Shown: positions 36,536 through 56,491 of the stretch, in pieces
Layout: each line of letters starts with the position of its first letter
How positions within the stretch are numbered: position 1 is the stretch's first letter
DNA from: Patescibacteria group bacterium
Lineage (GTDB): Bacteria; Patescibacteriota; Gracilibacteria; UBA1369; UM-FILTER-53-11
Assembly: GCA_038062615.1 (NCBI GenBank)
Contig: JBBTWV010000002.1
Location: forward strand, 1 to 56,491
Direction of reading: 5' to 3'
Length of the DNA stretch: 56,491 nucleotides
Program-made: the position numbers and the translations under genes
The notes under the pieces: generated by a model
What the model was told of the DNA's origin: nothing
What the model saw: the letters and a program-made list of their open reading frames with translations, nothing else
The model's database searches: none

Positions 36536-36627
36536 GGTTGCGCCCTTCAGGCGCAGTTATTGGTTTAGCCTCGCTAGAGTCATCTATGCAGATGACATGA
36601 TGCTGAGGCATCAGGCTCGGCCTGTTA
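36536..36627 (-). repeat. Family B nested-hairpin repeat (B2) filling the rpsM-rpsK spacer
   Basis: GGTTGCGCCCTTCAGGCGCAGTTATTGGTTTAGCCTCGC...GGCTCGGCCTGTTA. The TTA at 36625-36627 is the complement of the rpsM stop codon. Confidence 0.7.
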
Positions 36628-40352: not shown

Positions 40353-40356
40353 GGGT

Positions 40357-40851
40357 TTATTTTGCCTCAGATGGGGCCTTGGAAGCAACAGTCTTTTGAG
40401 ATGCTCCAGAAAGCACGATGGTTCCGTTTTTCGCTTCAATTTTTTGCTTGGCGGATGCGGAACAGGCATCAACTTTTACCGTAAGCTTCTTTTGGACTTC
40501 TCCGTCACCCAAAATTTTAACCGGCAAGTTTTTGCGTGAAACCAGCTTCTGCTCATAAAGAGCGATGAGATCAACCGTCATACCTTCGTCAAACACATTC
40601 AAGTCGGCAACATTCACTACTTGGAAAGGCACGCGGTTAGGATTGTTGAACCCTTTGAGCTTTGGAAGGCGTCGGAGGAGAGGAGTCTGTCCTCCTTCAA
40701 AACCCTGCTTAACACGTCCACCAGAACGAGATTTTTGGCCTTTAACGCCTCGTCCGGAATACGAACCTCTACCAGAACCGTCTCCGCGTCCTGCTGCGCG
40801 GGCGAATCTGTGAGCACCTGCCTGTGGTTTAAGGGTGTGATGTCCAATCAT
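40357..40851 (-). CDS. rplO: 50S ribosomal protein L15
   Basis: GRGDGSGRGSYSGRGVKGQKSRSGG...FEGGQTPLLRRLPK. Overlaps the rpsE stop by 4 nt. Confidence 0.9.
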   Translation of the reverse strand: MIGHHTLKPQAGAHRFARAAGRGDGSGRGSYSGRGVKGQKSRSGGRVKQGFEGGQTPLLRRLPKLKGFNNPNRVPFQVVNVADLNVFDEGMTVDLIALYEQKLVSRKNLPVKILGDGEVQKKLTVKVDACSASAKQKIEAKNGTIVLSGASQKTVASKAPSEAK

Positions 40852-41489
40852 ACAGTGGGTTTTTTCATGGGTTTAAGTTGCCCAAGCGCAATCATCATAG
40901 CTTGTGCATTGGTAATTCGATTTCTGGCGCCGAACATTTTGCTGAGCATATTTTTAATTCCGGCTAGTTCTGCAATTTTACGAACGGCACCGCCGGCAAT
41001 AATTCCTGTACCAGGGCTGGCTGGCATCATAAAAATTTTAGCGCTCTTAAACTTTACCGTGACGTCATGCGGTATAGTGCCGTTTTTGAGCGGAACCACC
41101 ACCATGTCTTTTTTGGCCTGAGTGATAGCTTTTTGGATGGCACCGACGACTTCGTGGGATTTTCCAATACCAATGCCCACTTTACCCTTTCTGTTGCCAA
41201 CAACCACGGTGGCGCGGAAACGCAAACGGCGTCCTCCTTTTACTACGCGCGTTACACGATCAATTTGCAAAACTTCTTCTTCATATTCGGAAGGTTCTCT
41301 TCTGCCTCCACGTCCACCGTGGCCCCCGCCTGGACCTCCGCGTCCTCCTCCGGGTCCTCCGCGTCCATGCCCACCACCCGGACCACCACGCCCGCCGCCA
41401 CCTGGTCCTCCGCGCTTGCCTGCCGGTAGGCTAGTTCCGCGTTGGGGTGCTGCTCCTGCTGCCGGTACATTACTTTTCTGTTGTTCCAT
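40848..41489 (-). CDS. rpsE: 30S ribosomal protein S5 with Gly/Arg/Pro-repeat N-terminal extension
   Basis: Core IDRVTRVVKGGRRLRFRATVVVGNRKGKVGIGIGKSHEV. The N-terminus has GGPGGG(H/R)G repeats. Confidence 0.9.
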   Translation of the reverse strand: MEQQKSNVPAAGAAPQRGTSLPAGKRGGPGGGGRGGPGGGHGRGGPGGGRGGPGGGHGGRGGRREPSEYEEEVLQIDRVTRVVKGGRRLRFRATVVVGNRKGKVGIGIGKSHEVVGAIQKAITQAKKDMVVVPLKNGTIPHDVTVKFKSAKIFMMPASPGTGIIAGGAVRKIAELAGIKNMLSKMFGARNRITNAQAMMIALGQLKPMKKPTV

Positions 41490-41505
41490 AAGATTTTAGA
41501 ATTAC

Positions 41506-41535
41506 ATTCTTGATTCCTGACTCCTGATTCTTGAC
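41506..41535 (-). repeat. Family E purine-rich repeat copy 2, in the rplR-rpsE spacer
   Basis: The minus strand reads GTCAAGAATCAGGAGTCAGGAATCAAGAAT. It shares the exact 13-mer CAGGAATCAAGAA with 3367-3379. Confidence 0.5.
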
Positions 41536-41883
41536 TCAGAACACAAGGCCGCCTTCACGTGCGCCATCGGCGAGTGCTTTTACGCGACCATGATATTTAT
41601 AGCCGTTTCGATCAAATACACAAGTTTTTACGCCTTTTTCGAGAGCCTTTTTAGCCAGTTCCATACCGACTTTTTTAGCACGCTCGGTCTTGGTGCCTTG
41701 CTTAATGAAAGCACTATCGCTCGCAGCAGCAACCACAAGCCCTTTGGCATCGTTCACTAATTGAGCGTAATTTTTCTTAAGACTTCGGAAAACCACGAGC
41801 CGCGGACGAGTTTCTGAGCCTTCTATGCGGGCACGGATTCGGATGTGTCTTCTTTCGCGTTTGAGGAACTTCTTATTGTTCAT
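41536..41883 (-). CDS. rplR: 50S ribosomal protein L18
   Basis: MNNKKFLKRERRHIRIRARIEGSETRPRLVVFRS... The tracked start at 41961 reads through repeat C1. Confidence 0.9.
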   Translation of the reverse strand: MNNKKFLKRERRHIRIRARIEGSETRPRLVVFRSLKKNYAQLVNDAKGLVVAAASDSAFIKQGTKTERAKKVGMELAKKALEKGVKTCVFDRNGYKYHGRVKALADGAREGGLVF

Positions 41884-41961
41884 AATGTTTACGCTCGTCT
41901 GCGCTCGAACCGGCAAAGCCGGATTCTCGCTTGCCTCGCGGCGCCGCTGTGCGGCGCTCAT
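41884..41961 (-). repeat. Family C structured repeat (C1), abutting the rplR start codon
   Basis: AATGTTTACGCTCG...CCGGCAAAGCCGG...GCGCCGCTGTGCGGCGCTCAT aligns with 55789-55868. Confidence 0.7.
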
Positions 41962-41996
41962 AAGGCGCTAGACTGTTAATAAATAGTTAACTTCTT

Positions 41997-42563
41997 CTAC
42001 GCACCGCCTTTAGCGGCGGCTGTAGCGGCTTTTCCGGCCTTGCGGCGGATTTGCTCGCCAAGATAACGAATACCTTTTCCTTTATAAGGTTCTGGTGGAC
42101 GGAGTCCTCGAAGCTCGGAAGCCACTTGGCCCACCAAACTTTTATCAATGCCGGAAACCGTGATGATGTTCTTCTTTTCTTTATCAATTTCAAACAGAAT
42201 GCCTTCCTTAGCGGTGTATTCAATAGGATGAGAGAATCCAAGCGCCAGTTTGAGCTTTTTGCCTGCAATTACTTCAGCGCGGTAACCTACACCTTGAATC
42301 TCAAGTTTTTTGAAGAATCCCTTTGTGACGCCCTCAACCATGTTTGCCACCAGCGTTCGAGTAAGACCGTGGAGGCTTCGATCAAGAATTTCTTCGCTCT
42401 TGCGCTCTACGATGATTTTTCCGTCCTCAATTTTAATAACGACGCGAGCGTGAGGAGCAAAAACAAGCGTGCCCTTTGTCCCTTTTACGTTGAGCTTGCC
42501 CTCTTTAAAGGTAACTTCAACGCCGGAGGGAATGGTAACTGGTTGTTTGCCGATTCGAGACAT
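41997..42563 (-). CDS. rplF: 50S ribosomal protein L6
   Basis: MSRIGKQPVTIPSGVEVTFKEGKLNVKGTKG. The ATG at 42563 avoids overlap with rpsH. Confidence 0.9.
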   Translation of the reverse strand: MSRIGKQPVTIPSGVEVTFKEGKLNVKGTKGTLVFAPHARVVIKIEDGKIIVERKSEEILDRSLHGLTRTLVANMVEGVTKGFFKKLEIQGVGYRAEVIAGKKLKLALGFSHPIEYTAKEGILFEIDKEKKNIITVSGIDKSLVGQVASELRGLRPPEPYKGKGIRYLGEQIRRKAGKAATAAAKGGA

Positions 42564-42574
42564 AAAAAATTTTC

Positions 42575-42958
42575 TTAATATACTTCGCAAAGGAATTCAC
42601 CGCCAACTTTTTGCTTACGGGCTTCTTCGCCAGGCAAGATACCGCGGGAAGTAGAAATAATAGCAATGCCTTGGCCGTTTTTAACGCGCTTGATTTTATC
42701 CCAACCCACATAAATGCGTTGGCCAGGTTTGCTGACGCGCTTGAGCTGAAGAGGTTCACCCTCCGCACGAAGCACAATGTGCAGCTCCTTGGTTTTTTCT
42801 ATGGCGACTTCCTCAACTTTTTCTAAGAAATGCTTATCCATAAGCACCTGTGCAATCGCCTTGATCATGCGAGATGATCGCACCGTAAGCTCGTGCCGTC
42901 TGGCAGAGCTGGCATTACGAATGCGTGTGAGAAAGTCTGAAATAGGATCGGTAAGCAT
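42575..42958 (-). CDS. rpsH: 30S ribosomal protein S8
   Basis: MLTDPISDFLTRIRNASSARRHELTV... Confidence 0.9.
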   Translation of the reverse strand: MLTDPISDFLTRIRNASSARRHELTVRSSRMIKAIAQVLMDKHFLEKVEEVAIEKTKELHIVLRAEGEPLQLKRVSKPGQRIYVGWDKIKRVKNGQGIAIISTSRGILPGEEARKQKVGGEFLCEVY

Positions 42959-42972
42959 ATGGTGAAATAAAA

Positions 42973-43197
42973 TTACCAGGAAGATTTTTTAACGCCTGCA
43001 ATGAGTCCGCGCAGCGCCAGTTCGCGGAAGCAAATTCTGCAGAGATCAAAGTAGCGCATGTAACCACCGATACGTCCGCAAAGCCGGCAGCGATTATATA
43101 CCTTTGTTGGATGATGAGGCTTTTTACCGGCTGCAAGGGAACGGAGGAATTCATCCTTGAGTCGGCGGTGTTTCACTTTTAAGGCTTTTCGAGCCAT
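42973..43197 (-). CDS. rpsN: 30S ribosomal protein S14, zinc-binding (type Z-like)
   Basis: CRLCGRIGGYMRYFDLCRICFRELALRGLIAGVKKSSW, with a CxxC...CxxC pattern. Confidence 0.9.
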   Translation of the reverse strand: MARKALKVKHRRLKDEFLRSLAAGKKPHHPTKVYNRCRLCGRIGGYMRYFDLCRICFRELALRGLIAGVKKSSW

Positions 43198-43211
43198 AAA
43201 TTAAGGAGAGA

Positions 43212-43754
43212 TTAATGTTTAAAGGGGAATCCAAATGCTTTTAAAAGTTCGAGTCCTTGTTTGTCATTTTCTGCCGTGGTCTGAATGGTTATCTGAACGC
43301 CGTGAGTCTTATTAACATCATCGGCCTGAATTTCTGGGAAGACGATGTGCTCAGTAATTCCCACGGAATAATTTCCTTTTCCATCGAATGACTTTTTAGA
43401 GATGCCGCGGAAGTCACGAATACGGGGGAAAACTACATGAACCAGTTTTGTAAGAAAATCATACATGCGTTTTCCGCGGAGCGTAACAATAACGCCTGAG
43501 ACCATATTGATTTTGAGCTTAAAGTTAGAAATGGCCTTTTTGGATTTCACTATCATAGGTTTTTGGCCAGCAATCATCGTAATATTTTTGACGATTTCTT
43601 CGGGATCCTTCCCCTGTGCCACGTGACTTCCAACGCCGACGTTAATTTTGATAGCCTTAATTTTTGGCACAGCATTCCGGTTTTTGAGTCCGAGTACTTT
43701 ACTGAGCTCGGGAACCATTTCGTCGCGATAGAGTTGTTGGAGAGTTTTCTTCAT
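43212..43754 (-). CDS. rplE: 50S ribosomal protein L5
   Basis: NRNAVPKIKAIKINVGVG...RGKRMYDFLTKLV...FDGKGNYSVGI. Confidence 0.9.
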   Translation of the reverse strand: MKKTLQQLYRDEMVPELSKVLGLKNRNAVPKIKAIKINVGVGSHVAQGKDPEEIVKNITMIAGQKPMIVKSKKAISNFKLKINMVSGVIVTLRGKRMYDFLTKLVHVVFPRIRDFRGISKKSFDGKGNYSVGITEHIVFPEIQADDVNKTHGVQITIQTTAENDKQGLELLKAFGFPFKH

Positions 43755-43767
43755 AAGGGATTTAAAT

Positions 43768-43825
43768 GGTCGCGCCCTTCGGGCGCATTACTTGCTTAGC
43801 CTCGCCTCGACGGCTCGGCCTGTTA
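43768..43825 (-). repeat. Family B repeat (B3) filling the rplX-rplE spacer
   Basis: TGGTCGCGCCCTTCGGGCGCATTACTTGCTTAGCCTCGCCTCGACGGCTCGGCCTGTTA. The terminal TTA is the complement of the rplX stop codon. Confidence 0.7.
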
Positions 43826-44164
43826 AACTTTCTTCGTGTGTTTTTTCTCAACGGCTTTATCGAGGCTTTGAGAACATTTTTTGCAGACGCGCTGCTTCTT
43901 TCCTGTCTTAAGAACAATGTGGCCCACGCGCGTTGCTTTAGAACAGTGTGGACAAATCACCATGACGTTAGAGATATCAAACGGAGCTTCAAAAGTGATT
44001 TTCTGGCCAGCTTGATCGGCTTTACGCTTAATATGTTTGACGCGCATGTTGATCTTCTCAACGACGGCTTTACGATGTTTTTCGCTGACACGCATGACCT
44101 TTCCGGATTTTCCGCGATACTTTCCGGCAATTACCAACACATTGTCGCCCGTATGAACTTTCAT
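43823..44164 (-). CDS. rplX: 50S ribosomal protein L24 (with CxxC...CxxC pattern in the C-terminal part)
   Basis: [29 protein letters not shown] motif, and [11 protein letters not shown]...VCKKCSQ. Confidence 0.9.
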
Positions 44165-44529
44165 AAAACTTCAGGAGCTAAAGAAACAATTTTTTGAAAA
44201 CCTTTTTCACGGAGTTCGCGAGCCACTGGGCCAAAGACGCGAGTTCCTTTTGGTTCACCTTCCTTAGTGACAATCACGCAGGCATTGTCGTCAAAGCGAA
44301 TGTAAGATCCGTCCTTGCGTCGGATTTCTTTGTGCGTGCGGACAATAACGGCGCGTTCAATCGCCTTTTTCTTCACTTGGGCGTGTGGTGTAGCTACTTT
44401 TACAGAGACCACAATGGTGTCGCCTACCGAGGCATAACGGCGCTTGGAACCACCGAGCACCTTGATGCACTTCACGAGCTTAGCGCCGGAGTTATCGGCC
44501 ACAACGAGTCTGGTAACTTGCTGAATCAT
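44161..44529 (-). CDS. rplN: 50S ribosomal protein L14
   Basis: [37 protein letters not shown]. Confidence 0.9.
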
Positions 44530-44537
44530 GAGTAAAG

Positions 44538-44774
44538 TTAGGCTTTAGGAAGGGGAGGAACCACCGTCCAACGCTTGAGTTTGGAGAGTGGGCGCGTCTC
44601 ATAAATGGTTACTTTATCGCCGACTTGATACTTGTTCTCTGGATCGTGCGCATAGAACTTTTTAGATGAACTTACGAGTTTTTTATACTTTGGATGAGCT
44701 CTTTTGGAAGTAACTTTAACCACAAGGGTCTTTTCCATTTTGTTGCTCATGACAGTTCCAACTTTAGTTCTCAT
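44538..44774 (-). CDS. rpsQ: 30S ribosomal protein S17
   Basis: [16 protein letters not shown]...HPKYKKLV...[26 protein letters not shown]. Confidence 0.9.
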
Positions 44775-44792
44775 AAGAATTGAGGATAATTA

Positions 44793-45023
44793 CTATTTCG
44801 TTACGGCACTTTTAGCATTCTCTTTGACTTGTTCCATAGAGAGCCAGCGCTTCATGGTTTTAATACGAGCAATGTATTTGCGCAAGCTTTTTAACTTCGA
44901 CGTCTCTTTGCTCTGGCGTCCTGCAACCGAGAGTCGCAGCTTGAGCAAGTTGATCCGGCCTTTGCGGATTTCTTCAACCAGTTCTTTCTCTGTCATCTTT
45001 TTGAGTTCGTCGGGGGTAAGCAT
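44793..45023 (-). CDS. rpmC: 50S ribosomal protein L29
   Basis: LKKMTEKELVEEIRKGRINLLKLRL, in the position between rplP and rpsQ. Confidence 0.85.
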   Translation of the reverse strand: MLTPDELKKMTEKELVEEIRKGRINLLKLRLSVAGRQSKETSKLKSLRKYIARIKTMKRWLSMEQVKENAKSAVTK

Positions 45024-45027
45024 GGGG

Positions 45028-45088
45028 ATTGTTGCGCCCTGCGGGCGCGTTATTGGCTTAGCCGTCGCCTCGACGGCTAAGCCTGTTA
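45028..45088 (-). repeat. Family B repeat (B4) filling the rplP-rpmC spacer
   Basis: ATTGTTGCGCCCTGCGGGCGCGTTATTGGCTTAGCCGTCGCCTCGACGGCTAAGCCTGTTA, with a perfect 10-bp stem TTAGCCGTCG/CGACGGCTAA. The terminal TTA is the complement of the rplP stop. Confidence 0.7.
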
Positions 45089-45499
45089 GTGTGAGATAAC
45101 GAAGCGAGTTCTTACGGGGAGTTTGCTTGCAGCCAGGTACATGGCTCTCTTGGCGAGATCTTGGGTTACGCCATCCATTTCCATAATAATGTGGCCTTTT
45201 CGTACCTGTGAGACATAGAATTCGACGGTTCCCTTACCGGCACCCATGGGTACTTCAGCCGCTTTGCGAGTGATGGGCTGGTGAGGAAAAATTCGAATCC
45301 AGATTTTTCCTCCGCGTTTGAGGCAGTGCGCAACAGCTTTACGTGCGGCTTCCAGCTGACGAGAATTGATCTCGCCGCCACTTTGAGCTTTGAGTCCAAA
45401 AGATCCAAAGCTGAGTTGATGGCCGGAAGTTGCGACACCATACTGGCTGTTTCGCATCCGATGCCACTTCCTATATTTCGTTCGAGCAGGCTGTAACAT
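45086..45499 (-). CDS. rplP: 50S ribosomal protein L16
   Basis: MLQPARTKYRKWHRMR...GGKIWIRIFPHQPITRKAAEVPMGAGKG. Confidence 0.9.
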   Translation of the reverse strand: MLQPARTKYRKWHRMRNSQYGVATSGHQLSFGSFGLKAQSGGEINSRQLEAARKAVAHCLKRGGKIWIRIFPHQPITRKAAEVPMGAGKGTVEFYVSQVRKGHIIMEMDGVTQDLAKRAMYLAASKLPVRTRFVISH

Positions 45500-45507
45500 A
45501 GAAAATC

Positions 45508-46137
45508 TTAATGAAACACTTCACCGCGATAAACCCACACCTTTACTCCGATGGTTCCATAGGTGGTTATGGCCCGGTAGTAACCGTAATCAATATCAGC
45601 ACGGAAAGTTTGAAGTGGAATTTTTCCGGCAGCAAAGAACTCACTGCGAGCAATTTCAACACCATTGAGACGCCCAGCGCAGTTGATCTTTACGCCTTTG
45701 GCGCCCGATTCCATAGAACGTTCAATAGAAATCTTGCAGGCGCGTCGGTAAGGGATGCGCTTTTCGATCTGCTTGCCCACCAGCTCTGCCAAAATGTAGG
45801 CATCTTGGTACGGCTTCTTAATCTCTTTAATGTTGATGATGAATTTGTCATGGAACTTGGCTTCAAGATCCTTGCGAAGATTATCAATGGCGGCTCCTTG
45901 GCTGCCAATGGCAAGACCTGGCCTTGAACTCATAATATTCACCGTAACTTGATTGGCATTGCGGAGAATCTCAATATGAGAGACGCCAGCTTCGGAAAGT
46001 TTTTTCTCAACGAACTTTCGAAGTTGAATATCCTGATGCAGCGTCTTTGCAAAGTTATGCTTGTTGGCATACCACTTTGAGTCCCAGGTGCGGTTGATAC
46101 CGAGACGGAGTCCAATTGGATGTACTTTTTGACCCAT
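45508..46137 (-). CDS. rpsC: 30S ribosomal protein S3
   Basis: MGQKVHPIGLRLGINRTWDSKWYA, plus a KH domain. Confidence 0.9.
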   Translation of the reverse strand: MGQKVHPIGLRLGINRTWDSKWYANKHNFAKTLHQDIQLRKFVEKKLSEAGVSHIEILRNANQVTVNIMSSRPGLAIGSQGAAIDNLRKDLEAKFHDKFIINIKEIKKPYQDAYILAELVGKQIEKRIPYRRACKISIERSMESGAKGVKINCAGRLNGVEIARSEFFAAGKIPLQTFRADIDYGYYRAITTYGTIGVKVWVYRGEVFH

Positions 46138-46151
46138 GGGGAGAGAAATAA

Positions 46152-46553
46152 TTAAGCTTGAATTTTCTGAGTAACTTTTACAGGCTTTTCTTTAATAACT
46201 TTTTTCACTTTTGCATCAGGAGCGGCTGTACGCACGGCCACTTCTACCGTAATGTGGCTTGTTCTTTTGAGGATAGGATGAGCACGTCCTTTTGATACGG
46301 GACGATGCCGTTTAAGAGTGGATCCTTCATTCACAATGATCTTGCTGATGTAGAGATCTTTGCGCTGCTGTTTGAAGTTTTGCTCGGCGTTGGCAACGGC
46401 AGAGCGAATCGTCTCCATAAGAGGCTTGGCACTTTTCTTGGGAGTAAAGCGCAGAAAGTTAATGGCTGTTTCTGCGGATTTGCCGCGAACAAGATCAGCG
46501 ACGAGGTTCACTTTTTTTGGAGAGATGCGGAGATATCTTCGGATAGCTTTCAT
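46152..46553 (-). CDS. rplV: 50S ribosomal protein L22
   Basis: MKAIRRYLRISPKKVNLVADLVRGKSAETAINFLRFTPKK. The tracked TTG start at 46589 reads through a repeat-like GC-rich stretch. Confidence 0.85.
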   Translation of the reverse strand: MKAIRRYLRISPKKVNLVADLVRGKSAETAINFLRFTPKKSAKPLMETIRSAVANAEQNFKQQRKDLYISKIIVNEGSTLKRHRPVSKGRAHPILKRTSHITVEVAVRTAAPDAKVKKVIKEKPVKVTQKIQA

Positions 46554-46652
46554 GAGGCGAGGGAGCGAAGCGACCGAGCCTTTTACCAATTGAGGGTTGT
46601 CGCCGTTAGCTTAGTGAGTGATATAAACTTAGGAGCACAGATTAAAGATTTT

Positions 46653-47030
46653 CTATTTCGCTGGTGCTTTAGTAGGGGCAGCGGCACCGGCAGCAGGTGC
46701 ACCGGTTGCTCCAGGAGCAGGAGCGGCGCCGCCTTCAGCGGCAGAACCAGTACCAACTTCGCGAGCCAAACGGCCACCGTGAGCTCTAAATTTACGAGTA
46801 GGGGAGAATTCACCAAGACGATGTCCCACCATGTTTTCACTTACGAACACCGGGATGTGCTGCTTGCCATTGTGGACTCCAAAGGTGTGGCCCACAAATT
46901 CTGGAGGAATCTGGCAAGAACGTGCCCAAGTCTTGATAATCTTTTTTTGTCCGATGGCATTGAGTGCCGCAACTTTCTTCACAAGTTTGGCATCTACGTA
47001 AGGACCTTTTTTTGAACTGCGATGTGACAT
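46653..47030 (-). CDS. rpsS: 30S ribosomal protein S19 with ~35-aa Gly/Ala/Pro-rich C-terminal extension
   Basis: [14 protein letters not shown]...[34 protein letters not shown], then [33 protein letters not shown]. Confidence 0.9.
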
Positions 47031-47031
47031 A

Positions 47032-47886
47032 TCACTCAGTTTTAATTAATTGCTTGCCCTTGCGGGTGCGGATGATAAAGCGGTTTGTCCATTTTTTGCG
47101 CGTGCGAGTTTTGTGACCCAACGCCGGGGCACCCCATGGAGTTTTAGGATGAATGAGACCGATCGTAGTACTTCCTTCACCACCACCGTGTGGATGATCA
47201 ATCGGGTTCATGGCTTTACCTTGTACTTCCGGACGCAGACCTTTCCAGCGTGCTCGGCCGGCTTTTCCAAGCGAGACCAAGTTGTGGTCAGGATTACTGA
47301 CGCGACCAATGGAAGCGTAGCAGGTTTTATGCACAAATCGAAGTTCCTTAGAAGGCATTTCGACCTGGGCATAACGACCTTCGAGCGAGATAAGCCGTGC
47401 TGCTGAACCAGCAGATCGGATAACTTGCCCGCCCTTACCGGAGGTCATTTCCAGATTATGAATCTCAAAACCAACAGGAATATTTTTAAGTTGAATGCGA
47501 TTGCCAACCTTTATTTTGGCCTTCGCCTTGGTCATAATGGTACCGCCGACCGTAATGCCGTGTGGCGCTAAGTGATAACGTTTTTCACCATCGGCGTAGT
47601 GCACCAACATAATGAAGCAAGTGCGGAAAGGATCATATTCAATGGCGGCAACTTTGCCTGGCACATCCAATTTTTCCGTCTGTTTAAAATCAATCAAGCG
47701 ATACAAAACCTTGTTTCCTCCGCCGCGATGGCGCACCGTGAGGCGACCCTGATTATTACGACCAGCGTGTTTTTGAATGCGTACGCGCAGACGTTTCTCA
47801 GGACGATGTTTCGTGAGTTCTTCGTACGTAAGGCTAACGCGGAAGCGTTGGCCGGGAGTCGTTGGTTTAAATGATTTGACTGGCAT
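47032..47886 (-). CDS. rplB: 50S ribosomal protein L2
   Basis: [17 protein letters not shown]...[16 protein letters not shown]. Confidence 0.9.
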
Positions 47887-47894
47887 AGAGATGG

Positions 47895-47967
47895 GTGTCC
47901 TTGCGAGCGTTAGCGAAGCAATCTAGTGTAGGTTGCTTCGTCCCATGGATGGGACTCGCAATGACAG
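47895..47967 (-). repeat. Family A nested-hairpin repeat (A2) filling the rplW-rplB spacer
   Basis: GTGTCCTTGCGAGCGTTAGCGAAGCAATCTAG...TTGCTTCGTC...CTCGCAATGACAG. The outer arms GTCCTTGCGAG/CTCGCAATGAC and inner arms GCGAAGCAA/TTGCTTCG are complementary. Confidence 0.7.
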
Positions 47968-48267
47968 TTATGACTTAACTTTAGGCTTCATGGCATCAAT
48001 TACCTTGAGACCTTTGGTGGTAATAATAACTTTTTTTAAAGCTGGTCTCTTTGTTACTGGCGTCCGAGCCTTTCCAATCTTAGTCTTTTTAGGCGTTTTG
48101 ATGACGTTCACTTTTGCCGCATCAACTCCGTAAATTTCTTTGAAAGCGGCGCGAATATCAACTTTGGTGGCATAAGGCCGAACAAAGAACTGAAACTTTC
48201 CCTTCTTCTCTGCGGAAGTTGCTTTTTCGGTAATGACTGGACGTAAAAAGAAATCGAAGGTTTTCAT
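47968..48267 (-). CDS. rplW: 50S ribosomal protein L23
   Basis: LRPVITEKATSAEKKGKFQFFVRPYATKVDIRAAFKEIYGV. Confidence 0.9.
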   Translation of the reverse strand: MKTFDFFLRPVITEKATSAEKKGKFQFFVRPYATKVDIRAAFKEIYGVDAAKVNVIKTPKKTKIGKARTPVTKRPALKKVIITTKGLKVIDAMKPKVKS

Positions 48268-48275
48268 GTGAGAAA

Positions 48276-48905
48276 TTATGAGCTAAGGAAGACTTCTTCT
48301 AATTTAGCGATTGAGGCTTTTAAAAAGACAATATCTCTATACTTCAGCAGGTCCACAACATTGAGGTAATTTACCAGGATAGATTTAACTGAAGGAATGT
48401 TGCGGCTGGAACGGTAGAGAGTTTCATCTTTACCTGGGAGTACAAAGAGAACCGTCTTTTTAAATGGAAGTTTTTTGAGCATCTCATTGAACTTCTTGGT
48501 CTTGGGAGTTTCTGAATCGAATGCTTCTAATGCGGAAACGTTGCCGTCTTTGAGCTTTGAAGCGAGGGCAGAGAACAAAGCACCACGGCGTTCTTTTTTA
48601 GAAGCGAAGAGCTCAAAATTTCTGGCGTTACGAGGACCAAAAGCCACACCACCTCCACGGAAGTGCGGGTTGGTAATGGAACCCTGGCGGGCATTACCAG
48701 TGTGCTTTTGTTTGTAAGGTTTTTTACCACCACCACGCACCTCACCTTTGGTCATGGTGTGAGCAATAGGGTGGCGCTTGTTGGATTGCTGCAACACGAG
48801 CATGCGATGCATGAGAGGCTTATTGATAGCGTGCCCAAAAATTTTTTCTGGAACCATTACTTCGCCTTTAGGGCTGCCGTCTTGTGAGTACAGGGGGATT
48901 TTCAT
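48276..48905 (-). CDS. rplD: 50S ribosomal protein L4
   Basis: TKGEVRGGGKKPYKQKHTGNARQGSITNPHFRGGGVAFGP. Confidence 0.9.
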   Translation of the reverse strand: MKIPLYSQDGSPKGEVMVPEKIFGHAINKPLMHRMLVLQQSNKRHPIAHTMTKGEVRGGGKKPYKQKHTGNARQGSITNPHFRGGGVAFGPRNARNFELFASKKERRGALFSALASKLKDGNVSALEAFDSETPKTKKFNEMLKKLPFKKTVLFVLPGKDETLYRSSRNIPSVKSILVNYLNVVDLLKYRDIVFLKASIAKLEEVFLSS

Positions 48906-48907
48906 AA

Positions 48908-49486
48908 TTAACTGTTAACCATTACGAGTCCTCCGCGCGGCCCGGGAACCGGACCCTTGATGAGGAGAATATTTCTTTCAGGGAGAACTTGGATGAGTGG
49001 AATATTTCGAGTGGTGAGACTCTCAAAGCCCATATGGCCGGCCATCTTTTTACCTTTGTGGATGCGGCCTGGGTTTGAACGGGCACCGATGGAGCCTGGT
49101 TCGCGGTTGAAGTGGCTTCCGTGGCTGCCTGGCCCAGAATGGAAGTGGTGGCGCTTCATGAAGCCAGCAAATCCTTTTCCTTTGGAAACGGCTTTTACCG
49201 TTACCAACTTAATTTCTTTGAAGGCCTCCACCGTAACTTGGTCACCGACTTTGTAATCCTCCGGCTTTTCAACATGGAACTCGCGCAGGAACCGGTATTT
49301 TCTGGTTTTGCGCGGTTTTTTCAATGCGTTAAACCCGAGGACTATCGCCGGATATCCATCTTTGTCTACCGTTTTGATCTGAGTAATGACCGAAGGAGAA
49401 CAACTCAGAACGGTGACAGGGATCACACGACCATCGTCTTGGAATATGCGAGTCATGCCCATTTTTGTGCCCAGAATACCTGGCAT
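48908..49486 (-). CDS. rplC: 50S ribosomal protein L3
   Basis: MPGILGTKMGMTRIFQDDGRVIPVTV matches the canonical L3 N-terminus. The tracked ORF extends to 49552 with 22 non-conserved residues. Confidence 0.85.
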   Translation of the reverse strand: MPGILGTKMGMTRIFQDDGRVIPVTVLSCSPSVITQIKTVDKDGYPAIVLGFNALKKPRKTRKYRFLREFHVEKPEDYKVGDQVTVEAFKEIKLVTVKAVSKGKGFAGFMKRHHFHSGPGSHGSHFNREPGSIGARSNPGRIHKGKKMAGHMGFESLTTRNIPLIQVLPERNILLIKGPVPGPRGGLVMVNS

Positions 49487-49610
49487 ACAGGAGAGGTTAG
49501 GAACTACTTTGCGAAACTTTTGGACTTGCTGGGAGTTATCCCGTCTCGACATACGTCGGGACGCCTAGGTTTCAAGCTAACGTGCTGATTTTCTTATTAG
49601 GTGCTTGTAC

Positions 49611-49639
49611 AAGTTACAGATAACCAATTTCGATGTCAA
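49611..49639 (-). promoter_or_regulatory. Putative promoter for rplC and downstream genes: TTGACA (49639-49634), 17 nt, TAACTT (49616-49611)
   Basis: Read on the minus strand within the 49487-49697 spacer created by the opposite-strand gene. Confidence 0.4.
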
Positions 49640-49658
49640 TTTCAGGTTACAGAAGCAC

Positions 49659-49687
49659 TTGACATTATTACTTTAATATAATACAAT
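49659..49687 (+). promoter_or_regulatory. Promoter TTGACA (49659-49664), 17 nt, TACAAT (49682-49687), 10 nt before the ATG at 49698
   Basis: Near-consensus hexamers at ideal spacing directly upstream of the orphan ORF. Confidence 0.5.
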
Positions 49688-49697
49688 CTTCATCCTT

Positions 49698-50687
49698 ATG
49701 AATACTACACCCTCATCGGATAGAAGAAACATAGATCAACTTGTGACGGATTTAAGGAGAGAACCCCTTCAGCTTCCTCCTGCCAATGCCACAGATGTGC
49801 AAGAGCGCCGTTTGGCCATTCGTAACCTTATTTTGGAGGCAACTCGCAATACCCTTTTTCAATTGTGTGATAACCAAGGCAACGGGCTTGTATACGATAA
49901 CGCTTGGCCACCACTTGATGGTGTTTCAACGATAGTTGATGGCCATGACGTACACGATTTTATGGAAGCCTTTCGTCATCATCTTGACCCGCAAAGTCCG
50001 CATTTTGATAATCTTCTTGCCGACCCTGACGTTGGAATTACTCGCCTTATTTCAATTTTTACCAAAATGGCCGTGGAGGTGGCCAGCCGAGGAGGAAGTC
50101 CATCCGCAATCTTTAAATATTTTAGAAGATTAACTGAAGAAGATTTACCAGTTGATGTACTAAGTGTGGGAAGAGTTCCGGAAACAAAATATTATGGTCT
50201 CGAAGAATTGCCCTGGGATAAACCAGAAAGCAGATCTAAGCCATTTACTGCCAAAGGATTATTGCAAGAGAAGCTCGGTGGAGCTTTGGTGCGTTATTGG
50301 TCATTTATGAATGACTATTTCTTAGCGCAAACATTACAAGAACCGAGATTTGCAGAACAAGCTGAATATATAAATACATTTAAAAAAGCTTTTGGAGATT
50401 TGCTCAGTAAAGCTGGTATTACGTCTGACTGGATTATGTGTTGGTTCTTTACTATATCTCATGCACTGGAAACCCAGGTGACTTCTGCAATGACCACGGA
50501 GATGAGCTTGGCCCTTATGCAACTCGGACAGGAAACAGTGGCCATTCTGGGGGGAGGTGACCAAAATAAGCATGCACTCATTGGACAGGCAGTTCAAAAA
50601 TTTGCACAACAAACATTGCCGGCTTTAGTAAACCAAGCGCCGCAAGCAGGACCAGCTTTGCTTCCCATTCGACAAGCTGAGGAGTGA
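49698..50687 (+). CDS. Orphan 329-aa helical protein inserted on the opposite strand between rpsJ and rplC
   Basis: Long ORF with its own promoter. No recognisable domain, signal peptide or TM segment. Confidence 0.65.
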   Translation: MNTTPSSDRRNIDQLVTDLRREPLQLPPANATDVQERRLAIRNLILEATRNTLFQLCDNQGNGLVYDNAWPPLDGVSTIVDGHDVHDFMEAFRHHLDPQSPHFDNLLADPDVGITRLISIFTKMAVEVASRGGSPSAIFKYFRRLTEEDLPVDVLSVGRVPETKYYGLEELPWDKPESRSKPFTAKGLLQEKLGGALVRYWSFMNDYFLAQTLQEPRFAEQAEYINTFKKAFGDLLSKAGITSDWIMCWFFTISHALETQVTSAMTTEMSLALMQLGQETVAILGGGDQNKHALIGQAVQKFAQQTLPALVNQAPQAGPALLPIRQAEE

Positions 50688-50694
50688 CATTCCG

Positions 50695-50706
50695 CTCGCA
50701 ATGACA
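50695..50706 (-). repeat. Family A right-arm fragment (A4)
   Basis: CTCGCAATGACA is identical to the right arm of A2 and A3. It lies in the 22-nt gap between the orphan ORF stop and the rpsJ stop. Confidence 0.45.
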
Positions 50707-50709
50707 TCG

Positions 50710-51051
50710 CTATTTCTTCGTGGGTAACTCGCTGGAGATCATCTTAATTTCGACATCCACACCGGCTGGTAAACTCAGGTTGCTCAGAGATTCAATGGTC
50801 TTTGGCGTTGATTCCGTAATATCAATAAGGCGCTTGTGCTCACGCATCTCAAACTGCTCGCGGCTGTTTTTGTGAACAAACGTAGAGCGGTTTACCGTGA
50901 ATTTTTTGATGCGTGTTGGCAGGGGAATAGGACCGGCAATAATGGCTCCGCTTTTTTCTGCCGTATCAATGATGAGTTTTGTGGACTCATCAGCAACCTT
51001 ATGATCAAAAGCCTTGATCTTAATTCTGATTTTCTGTTGAGCTGTGGCCAT
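50710..51051 (-). CDS. rpsJ: 30S ribosomal protein S10
   Basis: [50 protein letters not shown]. Confidence 0.9.
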
Positions 51052-51060
51052 AGAAAGGAT

Positions 51061-51132
51061 TGTCCTTGCGAGCGTAGCGAAGCAATCTAGACTAGTTTGC
51101 TTCGTCGGCCTTTGGGCCTTCTCGCAATGACA
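51061..51132 (-). repeat. Family A nested-hairpin repeat (A3) filling the tuf-rpsJ spacer
   Basis: TGTCCTTGCGAGCGTAGCGAAGCAATCTAGACTAGTTTGCTTCGTCGGCCTTTGGGCCTTCTCGCAATGACA. It directly abuts the tuf stop codon (51133-51135). Confidence 0.7.
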
Positions 51133-52332
51133 TTACTCGATGATCTTTGTTACAACTCCGGCACCAACCGTCTTACCACCTTCACGAATAGCAAAGCGAA
51201 GACCGGCGTCCATAGCAATAGGTACTCCAAGAACTACCACGAGTTTGACGTTATCACCTGGCATAACCATTTCTGCGCCGGCTGGAAGTTCAATATTTCC
51301 CGTCACATCCGTGGTGCGCATATAGAACTGAGGCTTGTATCCTTTGAAGAATGGAGTATGACGACCACCTTCTTCTTTGGTGAGTACATAAATTTCGCAC
51401 TCAAACTTGGTGTGAGGCTTGATAGTTCCTGGTTTAGCAAGAACCTGTCCGCGTTGGATTTCTTCTTTTTCAATACCGCGGAGGAGGAGACCTACGTTGT
51501 CTCCAGCCTGACCTTGGTCCAAAAGTTTCTTGAACATTTCAACACCAGTAACTACCGTCTTGCGAACGGGAGTAATACCAATGAGCTCAACTTCTTCGTT
51601 AATCTTCACAACGCCTTGTTCGATTCTTCCTGTAGCCACCGTACCGCGTCCTTTAATAGAGAAGACATCTTCTACAGGCATGATGAATGGCTTATCCAAA
51701 GGACGATCAGGCATTGGGATGTAGGTATCGAGCTGTTCGAGGAGGTCAAGAATTGGTTTTGCAGCGGCCTCGTCATTTGGATTTTCCATAGCCTTGAGAG
51801 CGGAGCCTTTAATAATTGGAGTTTTATCGCCTGGGAAGCCGTACTTGGTAAGAAGTTCGCGGATTTCCATTTCCGTAAGCTGGGCAATTTCCGGGTCAGC
51901 CATATCCATCTTGTTCATGAAAACGACGATGTATGGAACGTTTACCTGCTTGGCAAGAAGAATGTGTTCACGAGTTTGCGGCATGGGTCCATCGGCGGCA
52001 GATACCACAAGAATAGCGCCATCCATTTGGGCAGCACCGGTAATCATATTCTTAATATAGTCAGCATGACCAGGACAGTCCACGTGAGCATAGTGGCGGT
52101 TTGGAGTCTCATACTCCTGATGGGAAGTGGCAATGGTAATACCACGAGCCTTTTCTTCTGGAGCGTTATCAATCTGGTCATAGCGCACCGCCTTGTTGGA
52201 AGCGCTTGGCCACCTAGCGGAACACACCATGGTTATGGCGGCCGTTAAAGTTGTCTTTCCATGGTCAACGTGACCGATGGTACCGACGTTGAGATGAGGT
52301 TTCTTACGATCGAACTTAACTTGATCCGCCAT
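51133..52332 (-). CDS. tuf: Elongation factor Tu
   Basis: [26 protein letters not shown] and NKMD motifs. Confidence 0.95.
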
Positions 52333-52376
52333 AGTATTAAAAGTTAGAAGTTAATAAAGCTTAAATAGCGAAGATG

Positions 52377-52405
52377 ATTCTAGAGGAAGAAAAAGGGCTT
52401 TGCAA
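52377..52405 (-). promoter_or_regulatory. Putative tuf promoter: TTGCAA (52405-52400), 17 nt, TAGAAT (52382-52377)
   Basis: Read on the minus strand. The -10 ends 44 nt upstream of the tuf ATG. Confidence 0.45.
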
Positions 52406-52463
52406 GAGAAAAAATGAGGAAATATGGCATTAATATATGGAATGTTCTTGGGCTCCGCCTCTG

Positions 52464-53183
52464 CTATTCCTGTCCCATTTGAGCTAGATCGCCAAAATAT
52501 ATGGAATATTCTTTGGCTCCACGGCTACTCGTTTCGTTATTCCCATCTTTGTTTATGATCTCAAAATGTTCTGCTCCAACAATATTGGAACCTCTCCAGT
52601 GAAGGGTGAACTCGCTCCCTAATCCGCCACCAGATCCTCCATTAAATGATTCATTCTCTGGAAGGGTGACGAGCAATTTACAGGAATCCTTAAGGAGATC
52701 GCAGATATAAAGTGTTCTTTGATCCATTAAGTCGGGAACATAGGCCAATCTTGTGCTATCGGGCGAAGCAGTGAAGTTCATCCATCCGCCAGCCCATATA
52801 GAATTTATTGCCATTTTTTTAAATTTTTTCGTCTGGGTGTTGAATTTATAAAGAGGACCATATCCGGCATCAGTTTCGGGCATCGTAACTGAGAAAAAAA
52901 CTGCGTTGGAGTTATAAGGTTGAGCGATGAGAGTCAAAGATTCAGTCACTTTTAAATCAGGAAGCTGGTCGCGCACATTTTGTAGCACGATGCTTTTCTT
53001 TCCTGTTTTGCGACTGATTTTATAGAGCTTTGAGGTAAATCCATATTCCTCTCGTTCAGACCATTTTATCTCAATACCATAATCAAATAGCTTGGTACTT
53101 TGGGCACTTGCTGGAACAGCAAAAAGTAAAAAAGCCGCGCTGCAAATGGAGACAGAAAAAATGATTTTAATAAATTTTTGCAT
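52464..53183 (-). CDS. Hypothetical secreted protein inserted between fusA and tuf
   Basis: Signal peptide MQKFIKIIFSVSICSAAFLLFAVPASA|QS. Beta-rich sequence with no recognisable domain. Confidence 0.65.
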   Translation of the reverse strand: MQKFIKIIFSVSICSAAFLLFAVPASAQSTKLFDYGIEIKWSEREEYGFTSKLYKISRKTGKKSIVLQNVRDQLPDLKVTESLTLIAQPYNSNAVFFSVTMPETDAGYGPLYKFNTQTKKFKKMAINSIWAGGWMNFTASPDSTRLAYVPDLMDQRTLYICDLLKDSCKLLVTLPENESFNGGSGGGLGSEFTLHWRGSNIVGAEHFEIINKDGNNETSSRGAKEYSIYFGDLAQMGQE

Positions 53184-53223
53184 AGCAAAAAATAAAGCTT
53201 ATATTAAGCCGAGTATATCACAT

Positions 53224-55329
53224 TTATCTGGCTCTCGCCGTACCCGTTCCGCGGGATTCTTTGATCTTTTCGGAAACGTTGGCGGGAACTTTTTGGTAGT
53301 GCCCAAACTCCATGCTGTAGCTGGCTCGGCCTTGGGTCATGGAACGTAAATCGGTGGCGTAGCCAAACATTTCGGAGAGGGGAACGTGAGCCTTAATAAA
53401 CTTGGCCATGCCGCGATCTCCGGTTTCAAAAATTTGTCCGCGGCGAGAACTCAAGTTACCCATAACATCTCCAAAGAAATTTTCAGGAGAAACCACTTCC
53501 ACATTCATGATTGGTTCAAGGAGATGCGGATCGGCTTTGCGAGCCGCGCCTTGGAAGGCGAGTGAACCGGCAATTTTGAAAGCCAATTCAGAAGAGTCAA
53601 CGTCGTGGTAACTTCCATCAAAGAGTTCAACTTGAATATCCACAAGCGGATAACCGGCCACGACTCCACGAGTAAGGGCTTCTCGAATACCTTTATCAAC
53701 GGCTGGGATAAATTCACGCGGAATGCGTCCACCGACGATTTTGTCCAAAAATTCGTAACCTTTTCCTTTTTCTAAAGGACGAACGAGAAGTTTTACGTGG
53801 CCGTACTGACCGTGACCACCTGTTTGCTTCACATATTTTTCCTCACCTTCAGCCTCTTTGCTAATAGTTTCTTTGTAAGCTACTTGCGGTGTACCAACGT
53901 TGGCTTCCACTTTAAATTCGCGGCGCATACGATCCACGATGATATCCAAATGGAGTTCACCCATACCAGAAATAATCGTCTGGCCAGTTTCTTCATTCGA
54001 TTTTACTTGGAAGGTAGGATCTTCTTCAGCCAATTTTTGAAGGGCGATACCCATTTTCTCTTGATCGGCCTTGGTTTTTGGTTCAATGGCAATGGAGATA
54101 ACCGGATCAGGAAACTCAATCGCCTCCAAAATGATGGGATGATCCACGTCGCAAAGCGTATCACCCGTAAATGTCTGTTTAGGGCCAATGAGTGCGGCAA
54201 TTTCTCCGGCGTGAACTTCTTTAATCTCTTCACGCGAGTTGGCATGGAGCCGAACCATACGGCCAACGCGCTCTTTTTGTTCACTCGTGGCATTATAAAC
54301 ATACGAGCCGGTTTCTAATTTTCCGGAATAGACCCTAAAGAAAGCGAGTTTACCAACAAAAGGGTCAGTAGCAATTTTGAAAGCAAGCGCCGTGAAAGGT
54401 TCGCTTGCGTCGGGCTTACGTTCTTCTTGCAGCCCGGTGCGTGGGTTAATACCTTTAATAGGAGGAAGATCAAAAGGAGCGGGGAGGAAGAAACAGACGC
54501 CGTCGAGCACAAACTGAACACCCATGTTTTTGAGTGAGCTTCCGCAAAAAACCGGATACAACTGGCCTTTAATGACACCGCTTCGAAGTCCGCGGCGGAT
54601 TTCGTCTATCGTTAATTCTTTGCCTTCGATGTACTTGGCCATGAGGTCATCGTCAAACTCGGAAGCTTTTTCTAAAACTTTGTGGCGATATTCCGTCACT
54701 TGGTCCTTCATATCTTCTGGAATAGGAATTTCTGTAATTTTTTCGCCGTTTTCACCTTCAAATTTGTAGGCTTTTTGCGTGATCAAATCCACAATGCCGC
54801 TAAAGCTGCTTTCGTAGCCGATGGGAAGCTGCACCGCTACGCCGCTCTTGGAAAGGCGTTCGTGAATAGATGCCAGCGTCATGAAAAAATCCGCGCCGGT
54901 CTTGTCCATTTTATTTACAAAAGCGATACGAGGAACTTCATACTTATCGGCTTGGCGCCAGACGGTTTCGGATTGCGGTTCGACGCCTTGGGATCCATCA
55001 AACACGACAACGCCGCCATCCAGTACGCGCAAACTACGCTCAACTTCCACCGTAAAATCTACGTGGCCGGGAGTATCAATAATGTTGAAGCGATATTTTT
55101 CTCCGCCAATGGTGGGAGTCCAAAAACACGTGGTGGCCGCAGCGGTAATCGTAATGCCGCGTTCTTTTTCCTGTTCCATCCAGTCCATTTCGGCGGCACC
55201 TTCATGCACCTCGCCGATTTTGTGTTTCTTTCCGGTATAAAAAAGAACACGTTCAGTGGTGGTGGTTTTCCCGGCATCAATATGAGCAATAATGCCGATA
55301 TTACGCGTCAGTCGGAGATCTTCAGCCAT
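53224..55329 (-). CDS. fusA: Elongation factor G
   Basis: [28 protein letters not shown] and NKMD. 701 aa. Confidence 0.95.
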
Positions 55330-55335
55330 AAAATT

Positions 55336-55788
55336 TTAATATTTAGCAAAGTGAGCGAACGCCTTGTTGGCCTGAGCCATGCGGTGCGAATCGTCCTTCT
55401 TTTTGACAGCGGGACCTGTGCCTGCAGCGGCTTCAATAAGTACGCCGGCAAGTTTTTTACCCATAGGACGTCCTTTTATGCCACGTGCCGCGGCTATAAT
55501 CCAGCGGAATGCGAGGGAGAGTTGGCGGTTGGATTTTACCTCAACAGGAATTTGATACACCGCGCCGCCGATACGTTTGGGACGGACTTCCATGGTGGGT
55601 TTTACATTATCTACGGCTTTTTCAAACACACGTTCTGGATTTTGTCCGGCCGCCTGTTTGCTGATTTCAAGAAAACTGTCACGCAAAATTCTGCGGGAGG
55701 TAGATTTTTTGCCGCACGACATCATCGTGTTGATGAAGCGTTCTTGGAGCGGATTGGAACCTTCGGGAATGTAGATTGCTTTTTTCAT
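55336..55788 (-). CDS. rpsG: 30S ribosomal protein S7
   Basis: MSCGKKSTSRRILRDSF...MEVRPKRIGGAVYQIPVEV...HRMAQANKAFAHF. Confidence 0.9.
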   Translation of the reverse strand: MKKAIYIPEGSNPLQERFINTMMSCGKKSTSRRILRDSFLEISKQAAGQNPERVFEKAVDNVKPTMEVRPKRIGGAVYQIPVEVKSNRQLSLAFRWIIAAARGIKGRPMGKKLAGVLIEAAAGTGPAVKKKDDSHRMAQANKAFAHFAKY

Positions 55789-55868
55789 AATGTTTACGCT
55801 CGGCCTTGCTCAGACTGGCAGAGCCAGATCTTCGCTGCGGCCTCGCAGCCCCGCTGTGCGGCGCTCAT
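55789..55868 (-). repeat. Family C structured repeat (C2), abutting the rpsG start codon
   Basis: AATGTTTACGCTCGG...CTGGCAGAGCCAG...CCGCTGTGCGGCGCTCAT. It is collinear with C1 and has a compensatory change in the central hairpin. Confidence 0.7.
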
Positions 55869-55894
55869 TAATTAAATAAGATATTTGAAATTCG

Positions 55895-56305
55895 TTACTT
55901 AGGTCTCTTAGCACCATACTGACTACGTCCACGGCGACGAGCCGTAACACCTTGGGTATCAAGAAGTCCGCGGACAATGTGATAGCGCACGCCGGGAAGA
56001 TCCTTCACGCGTCCTCCGCGAATCATGACCACGGAGTGTTCTTGGAGGTTGTGGCCTTCACCCGGAATATAAGCGATAACTTCCATCCCGTTGGTAAGGC
56101 GAACCTTGGCGATTTTACGCAAAGCCGAGTTGGGCTTTTTAGGTGTCATGGTGGTTACCTTAATACAGACACCGCGTTTGAGCGGAGCAGAAAGCGGGAT
56201 CAGTTTGCTCTTGAGGGAGTTCCATCCAAATTGCAACACCGGAGATTTCGACTTCTTAGACGGGGGGTGGCGTTTGTGGCGGACGAGTTGGTTAATGGTT
56301 GGCAT
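55895..56305 (-). CDS. rpsL: 30S ribosomal protein S12
   Basis: [12 protein letters not shown]...[18 protein letters not shown]...[25 protein letters not shown]. Confidence 0.95.
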
Positions 56306-56315
56306 AGTGAGTCAC

Positions 56316-56343
56316 AGTCTAGCGGATAAAGTTATCGAGTCAA
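56316..56343 (-). promoter_or_regulatory. Putative str-operon promoter: TTGACT (56343-56338), 16 nt, TAGACT (56321-56316), 10 nt before the rpsL ATG
   Basis: Read on the minus strand. Confidence 0.45.
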
Positions 56344-56383
56344 GCTATAGGGCCTGTTCGCATATAATTCTTGCGATGGTTGG

Positions 56384-56474
56384 ACAGGAATATGGTTGGA
56401 TTTAAGGCGCGAGGAGCACAGTGTAGCATAGCTACACAAGCGACGAGCAACACGGAAGACAGCCATATTCCTGT
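56384..56474. repeat. ~90-bp imperfect palindrome upstream of the rpsL promoter
   Basis: Outer arms ACAGGAATATGG (56384-56395) and CCATATTCCTGT (56463-56474). Inner hairpin GTGTAGC-ATA-GCTACAC (56421-56437). Confidence 0.55.
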
Positions 56475-56491
56475 GCAACCCGTAGGGAAGG

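Follow-up and report, generated by a model that had tools for sequence, protein, structure and literature searches.

A small hairpin-forming repeat flush with the rplR and rpsG start codons, probably a lineage-specific insertion, in the ribosomal operons of a Peregrinibacteria-like bacterium

The 56,491-nucleotide stretch of DNA analysed here (the window) carries two copies, C1 and C2, of a short repeated element, family C, each of which ends exactly at the start codon of a ribosomal protein (r-protein) gene: rplR, encoding L18, in the case of C1 and rpsG, encoding S7, in the case of C2. We consider it probable, at roughly 60%, that C1 and C2 represent a small, structured, non-coding and lineage-specific insertion that was copied to two ATGA start sites. 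At least three hairpin-repeat families, this element among them, are present in the ribosomal operons of this Peregrinibacteria-like genome.

The window corresponds to the first 56.5 kb of record CAYIMD010000001.1 (68,959 bp; assembly GCA_964364405.1), so that window coordinates are also coordinates of that record. The same DNA is present in an ENA assembly with contigs named 'Hain_...', a name that we read as Hainich groundwater, and in the Logan assembly of run ERR3858122. The nearest L18 and S7 homologues with a named source come from Candidatus Peregrinibacteria or Gracilibacteria, and the r-protein genes are intact under standard stop codons. The two copies, the start codons that they abut and the short direct repeats at their edges are as follows (nt, nucleotides; aa, amino acids).

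41884-41961, minus strand: C1, 78 nt, taking up the final 78 nt of the spacer between rplF (L6) and rplR (L18); covariance-model score 101 bits
55789-55868, minus strand: C2, 80 nt, taking up the final 80 nt of the spacer between rpsL (S12) and rpsG (S7); covariance-model score 108 bits
41881-41883, minus strand: true start codon of rplR (L18; gene 41536-41883, 115 aa), predicted to be accessible
55786-55788, minus strand: true start codon of rpsG (S7; gene 55336-55788, 150 aa)
41958-41963 and 41880-41885, minus strand: 5' and 3' copies, respectively, of a TTATGA direct repeat flanking C1, as read in the sequence
55865-55870, minus strand: TAATGA at the 5' edge of C2, five of its six bases matching the TTATGA at 55785-55790, likewise read directly

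A preliminary description of this DNA, made from the sequence alone, had proposed that the two copies are homologous and collinear and that each abuts the true start codon of its gene, and both proposals hold. In the gene direction ATGAGCGCCGCACAGCGG opens and CGAGCGTAAACATT closes both C1 (from 41961 to 41884) and C2 (from 55868 to 55789), with the ATGAA of rplR or rpsG directly 3' of the element. When the two copies are aligned, similarity sets in sharply at the element's own ATG and continues through ATTATGAA, with unrelated flanks upstream. That this likeness arose by chance or in assembly is scarcely credible, given the covariance-model scores of both copies and the exactness of their ends: the 18-nt 5' end has only two zero-mismatch sites, against an expectation of 0 from shuffling, and the 14-nt 3' end too has only two, with ~0.5 expected in a scan that admitted up to 2 mismatches. 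In addition, the sequences of C1 and C2 are identical across three independent assemblies (NCBI metagenome-assembled genome, ENA and Logan), and they are therefore not assembly artefacts. All 14 substitutions that separate the copies fall within the central 46 of the 78 aligned columns (P = 2e-4), and because of this the ends of the element appear to be more strongly constrained than its interior, conserved ends around a variable centre being a pattern typical for copied elements. The two ends also share a direct motif (GAGCG ... GAGCG).

Each copy is predicted to fold into two hairpins:

41941-41957, minus strand: hairpin 1 of C1, GCGCCGC-ACA-GCGGCGC, 7 base pairs, beginning 4 nt past the start of the element's ATG
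41893-41939, minus strand: hairpin 2 of C1, long and interrupted, with the apical stem GAA.CCGGC-UUU-GCCGG.UUC (41907-41926) and a conserved GA/GA internal loop below it
55848-55864, minus strand: hairpin 1 of C2, as in C1 with one G-G mismatch, and an extra A-U pair (55865 with 55847) just outside it
55798-55846, minus strand: hairpin 2 of C2, with the apical stem AGA.CUGGC-UCU-GCCAG.UCU (55812-55831), an outer GGCC/GGCC stem and a GA/GA internal loop

The apical hairpins, which read CCGGC-AAA-GCCGG in C1 and CTGGC-AGA-GCCAG in C2 on the plus strand, had been put forward as covarying on the strength of one compensated pair. The compensation is real, but the single pair understates it: the apical stem extends through GAA/UUC in C1 and AGA/UCU in C2, and three pairs are altered on both sides and remain Watson-Crick, so that all 10 helix pairs are formed in both copies. 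Sliding the structure by one to three columns leaves no compensated changes. When the 14 observed substitutions are scattered at random in a Monte Carlo, at least three compensated pairs turn up with P = 0.0014 and one pair alone with P = 0.25, which is not significant; the covariation comes from two sequences only, and the shuffle control bottoms out at 1/8. The GA/GA internal loop below the covarying stem is symmetric and kept in both copies. Folding energies are only moderately better than those of shuffles (z of -1.9 to -3.1), and the pairing in C1 and C2 would be equally expected of a DNA hairpin; the structure could act in DNA or in RNA.

The two junctions were compared in ten related contigs, which represent eight distinct relatives at 76-87% protein identity (counted with duplicates, six contigs cover the S7 junction and seven the L18 junction), and the C element is absent from the S12-S7 and L6-L18 junctions of all ten. 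The S12-S7 spacer measures 1 nt in L170 (84% S7 identity), 4 nt in L172 (81%) and 20 nt in L185 (79%), with the identical sequence in L186; it consists of a 42-nt AT-rich repeat in L171 (83%), and in L184 (83%, the first-ranked S7 match) the 3' half of another repeat, family A (gattgcttcg...ctcgcaatgaca), lies 13 nt upstream of S7. The L6-L18 spacer measures 20 nt in L086 (77%) and 45 nt, C-rich, in L187-L189 (76%), and in the two closest relatives, L085 (87%) and L089 (82%), it is occupied by a third repeat, family B, whose own ATG leads gene callers to lengthen L18 to 126 and 123 aa. Repeat-free empty sites of 1, 4, 20, 20 and 45 nt are thus found at these junctions in relatives. The element is most simply a lineage-specific gain at both sites, because neither the orthologous spacers nor the other loci searched hold a copy. 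The two spacers are landing places for different repeats in different lineages.

The preliminary description had further supposed that the element takes the place of a ribosome-binding site and may control initiation at the downstream gene; neither supposition is supported. No Shine-Dalgarno motif precedes any of the 26 genes that run from S12 to SecY (window 39057-56305), and the element therefore replaces no Shine-Dalgarno site; a member of the Peregrinibacteria, Candidatus Peribacter riflensis, has been listed among the organisms in which such motifs are scarce (PMC10783764). At positions -12 to -1 of the 26 genes G is nearly absent and the sequence is pyrimidine-rich (ctctcccc, tctct), position -1 being T in 18 and C in 8, and the last 8 nt of the element, TAAACATT, are free of G and fit this local start context. 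Accessibility was scored at 28 sites as the mean unpaired probability over -12 to +12 in a partition-function fold of -120 to +60. The true starts of L18 (0.64) and S7 (0.73) are predicted to be open and rank with the most accessible of the 26 genes, and at 0.24 and 0.37 the ATGs that the element itself carries give two of the three lowest values among the 28 sites. With its true starts open, its orthologous spacers in relatives free of the element and two unrelated genes served, family C does not look like a control of downstream initiation.

The same arguments bear on a more specific form of regulation, in which the element would be an autoregulatory leader, a mimic of ribosomal RNA bound by S7, L18 or another r-protein that thereby represses translation. 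In the str operon of Escherichia coli, S7 binds a site in the rpsL-rpsG spacer and represses translation. C2 lies in precisely that S12-S7 intercistronic region, and its RNA is predicted to be structured and to contain an internal loop. We nevertheless hold this explanation to be very improbable: one and the same element stands ahead of both S7 and L18, two unrelated r-protein genes, which argues against a protein-specific site; the corresponding junctions in the ten related contigs lack it; the start codon is not sequestered; and neither copy matches an Rfam family, leader families included, whether at the gathering threshold or with E values allowed up to 10. The known leader RNAs (the E. 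coli S7 site, the Rfam leaders) do resemble family C in lying within operon mRNA immediately upstream of an r-protein cistron and in being structured, but each keeps to one conserved orthologous position and one protein. The window contains no rRNA gene.

Since the element brings its own ATG, its coding potential has to be considered. In C1 the open reading frame (ORF) that begins at 41961 is open and in frame with L18, giving a 141-aa product with 26 extra residues. The preliminary description had taken this extension to be false, and the comparison agrees: the best 120 L18 homologues are nearly all 113-117 aa long and align from the downstream ATG, and because of this the 26 residues are best regarded as an annotation artefact. 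The corresponding ORF of C2 (55794-55868, minus strand) has 24 codons, is out of frame with rpsG and ends in a TAA 5 nt upstream of the S7 ATG. Because a 2-nt insertion or deletion (columns 30-31) splits the two reading frames after codon 10, and because C1 is in frame and C2 out of frame with the gene that follows, the element appears not to be coding. The alternative is that the upstream ATG is a working start, producing a real extension of L18 from C1 and, from C2, a 24-residue leader peptide that drives re-initiation at S7. The open frame of C1 and the close spacing of the C2 stop codon would suit it, as would the placement of both upstream ATGs behind native AT-rich spacers and the presence, in a family B copy before L5, of a similar 8-codon ORF that ends 7 nt before the start codon. 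We think it unlikely, because the two peptides share only MSAAQR and four more residues before the frame shifts, the ATGs are among the least accessible sites scored (hairpin 1 starts at +5), the L18 homologues begin at the downstream ATG, and no protein cluster has three 5-residue words in common with either peptide.

Families A and B, encountered above in the relatives, also occur in the window itself:

47896-47966, minus strand: full copy of family A, filling the L23-L2 spacer
51061-51132, minus strand: full copy of family A, filling the EF-Tu-S10 spacer
50695-50705: partial copy of family A
15053-15091: partial copy of family A, in a plus-strand gene
43772-43822, 45034-45085 and 36540-36624, minus strand: family B, including copies in the L16-L29 and L24-L5 spacers
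18711-18790, plus strand: variant of family B
586-650 of L085 and about 375-436 of L089: family B in the L6-L18 spacer of these relatives

Family A is ~70 nt long (TGTCATTGCGAG...CTCGCAAGGACA), with 12-nt terminal inverted repeats (11 of 12 positions complementary) and two inner hairpins; an ORF at 14123-15091 takes its final codons and its TAG stop from the partial copy at 15053. Family B forms two hairpins (cAGGCCGAGCC..GGCGAGGCT and then taATGCGCCCGAAGGGCGC), begins directly after the upstream stop codon and stops 12-21 nt short of the next start; a GA/GA internal loop interrupts the first stem, with Watson-Crick AA/TT in place of that loop in the 18711 variant. A repeat of its own, ~140 nt long (tcctgggg..aaac..tacg..tttccccc ... 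ctccgctcat), is found in L086 at 9276-9419 and 3123-3262, in the S8-L6 and L3-L4 spacers; the set of spacer repeats thus seems to differ from lineage to lineage.

Local transcription reads all ten copies of families A, B and C in the sense direction, those at 15053 and 18711 on plus-strand genes among them, and this uniformity suggests a constraint tied to transcription rather than to a fixed DNA strand. It is the best argument for another explanation of family C: whatever its origin, the element would act in cis as a functional RNA within the polycistronic mRNA, shielding the upstream cistron from 3' exonucleases, marking a processing site or insulating the downstream start so that, in an organism lacking Shine-Dalgarno pairing, its translation does not depend on the upstream cistron. 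Chance would orient the seven non-founder copies in this way with a probability of only ~0.008. The three compensated pairs and the conserved GA/GA loop point in the same direction, as does a fold that keeps the start codon open and hides the upstream ATG, and S12 and S7, which in relatives are coupled by spacers of 1-4 nt, have had that coupling replaced by something here. Against a functional RNA stand the orthologous sites that do without the element and at which different families are interchangeable, the modest folding z-scores, and the absence of both an Rfam match and a terminator-like tail; no G-U pairs are present that would tell RNA-level from DNA-level pairing, and selfish repeats also maintain hairpins. 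We regard a functional RNA cis-element as a possibility to be taken seriously, though clearly not as the probable answer.

An insertion could account for the observations in the following way. A hairpin repeat would have entered one Peregrinibacteria-like lineage, by insertion or by copying, precisely at the ATG-A of both rpsG and rplR, and the event would have duplicated or brought along ATGA (TTATGA at the L18 site), so that one ATG stands at the element's 5' edge and a restored start codon just past its 3' edge. The element is presumably co-transcribed, since it lies within spacers of the str and spc operons. Its RNA, as modelled, would fold into two self-contained hairpins in which its own ATG is buried, and the 8-nt G-free tail and the true start would stay single-stranded. 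Because the fold would be self-contained, the true start open and initiation independent of Shine-Dalgarno pairing, these essential genes may tolerate the element, whose presence could then be neutral. The conserved ends and the compensated hairpin would in that case reflect constraint on the element, for its copying or for a harmless fold, rather than gene-specific regulation. A general RNA-level role, as a transcript stabiliser or in uncoupling cistrons, is possible alongside an insertion origin.

Several observations weigh against an inserted, mobile element. The known copy number is two, which makes a mobile family conjectural: a covariance model built from C1 and C2 found no further copy in the window (with filters off) or in a further 9.3 kb, which together make up the 66 kb of contig that could be read for the element census, and none in the loci of Peregrinibacteria-like relatives or in three more distant loci of the candidate phyla radiation (CPR). 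The exact two-end pattern (GAGCGCCGCAMAGCGG, a gap of 30-60, GAGCGTAAAC) has 0 matches in the genome or metagenome contig collections. The covariance search across relatives that the preliminary description had envisaged yielded no third copy anywhere searched, and the paired substitutions, though more than random placement would give, are seen in two sequences only. No terminal inverted repeats join the ends of the element, only internal hairpins being found, and a Pfam scan of ten unannotated ORFs in the window returned no transposase. The flanking duplication amounts to only 4-6 nt in two instances, ATGA is native gene sequence at both sites, and microhomology-mediated copying between the two spacers would give the same duplication. 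Finally, the uniform sense orientation hints at selection at the RNA level and fits purely selfish DNA less well.

A bolder version of the insertion account sees family C as a start-codon-seeking element that targets ATGA sites and that, together with families A and B, supplies sense-oriented intercistronic cassettes adopted in place of translational coupling in the r-protein operons of those Peregrinibacteria that do without Shine-Dalgarno pairing. The start codon would be regenerated by duplication, the fold would be self-insulating and the G-free tail would be ready for initiation. We offer this version as speculation and regard it as doubtful.

Some weaker leads were set aside in the course of the searches. 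A covariance match at 784-863 (21.7 bits) lies within a coding region and has no sequence similarity to the element; a looser pattern for the 5' half gave 11 matches in metagenome contigs, all in unrelated high-GC sequence; and the 16-mer alone gave 80 matches in viral contigs, all unrelated and mostly in one phage gene. An intrinsic terminator was dismissed, as no T-run follows the hairpins and no terminator is called at either site. Integron attC sites and ends of the IS200/IS605 type were dismissed as well, since a matching core site is lacking and the left flank is the same as the right end. A literature search on the family A core CATTGCGAG and on CPR intergenic repeats produced nothing relevant.

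Among known systems, family C resembles the REP/BIME and REPIN sequences of proteobacteria, which are short, GC-rich hairpin repeats of transcribed operon spacers, non-coding and lineage-specific, with compensated hairpins (PMC3116915, PMC3184786, PMC2229807). REP sequences, however, are imperfect palindromes of 20-40 nt that reach copy numbers of tens to hundreds, are frequently arranged as inverted pairs and go together with a RAYT transposase (IS200/IS605-like Y1), whereas the family C unit is 78-80 nt long, contains two different hairpins, is known from two copies and forms no inverted doublets. Family C is also flush with start codons, while REP sequences lie downstream of stop codons, and no RAYT is found among the ten window ORFs scanned. 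A second likeness is to MITEs (miniature inverted-repeat transposable elements) such as Correia, ERIC/IRU, RUP and BOX, which at ~80-150 nt are non-coding, foldable, intergenic or co-transcribed and flanked by short target duplications (PMC10969869, PMC2229807), and which can add start codons or change the expression of a neighbouring gene (PMC10969869, PMC2229807). Family A, with its 12-nt terminal inverted repeats, is a textbook case of a MITE. Family C shares with MITEs the empty orthologous sites in relatives, but it lacks terminal inverted repeats, its ends are direct (GAGCG ... GAGCG) and its apparent duplication, ATGA or TTATGA, is the start codon itself. The palindromic elements of Rickettsia (RPE) lie inside coding sequences, are translated and can add residues to annotated proteins. 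C1 is like them in being in frame and in adding residues to the annotated L18; the differences are that C2 does not share the frame of its gene and that homologous L18 proteins lack any such extension.

Other features of the region were noted in passing. A gene for a single-stranded DNA-binding protein (PF00436) lies between rpoB and rpoC in this genome (L081 4837-5295; ~60.5-61.0 kb of the record, beyond the window) and in two relatives, L172 (3700-4152) and L185 (5027-5485), an unusual conserved interruption of rpoBC. Between S10 and L3 the window holds an antisense ORF of 329 aa without a Pfam match (49698-50687, plus strand), and L086 has a 305-aa ORF without a Pfam family in the same place and orientation. 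The fusA (EF-G) and tuf (EF-Tu) genes are separated by a 239-aa ORF at 52464-53183 (minus strand), again without a Pfam match; in L172, L184 and L185 this junction or its vicinity has toxin-antitoxin (ParE) or AbiE genes instead. About 2.5 kb is duplicated, 16196-18680 against 21262-23695, ~5 kb apart and at 71-89% identity, and the duplication contains a large ORF without a Pfam match (605 and 552 aa) and a small ORF, with a PIN-domain gene in the first copy. The public call for L4 (178 aa, start 48812) is probably too short, as an ATG at 48905, 2 nt past the L3 stop, gives 209 aa, in agreement with L086 and L187, whose L4 has 208-209 aa; in that case the supposed 95-nt spacer between L3 and L4 (48813-48905) is coding. 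The rpoC-S12 spacer, which runs for 323 nt from window 56306-56491 on to record position 56628 (L081 9161-9483) and measures only ~50 nt in relatives, holds a long imperfect inverted repeat (gcatataattcttacagatggaagccacccattttg ... caaaatgggtggcttcc ... ccatattcctg ... gaattatatgc).

At present the element is a two-copy local curiosity, but it carries some wider lessons. Its ATG has misled gene callers, so that a 141-aa L18 is on record in public assemblies. Several hairpin-repeat families have settled even in the most compact and essential operons of a CPR bacterium with a small genome; they turn over quickly between close relatives and are always found in sense orientation. If the orientation rule and the placement flush with start codons were to hold genome-wide, these repeats would provide a way to test how bacteria that initiate translation without Shine-Dalgarno pairing define their start sites and uncouple their cistrons.

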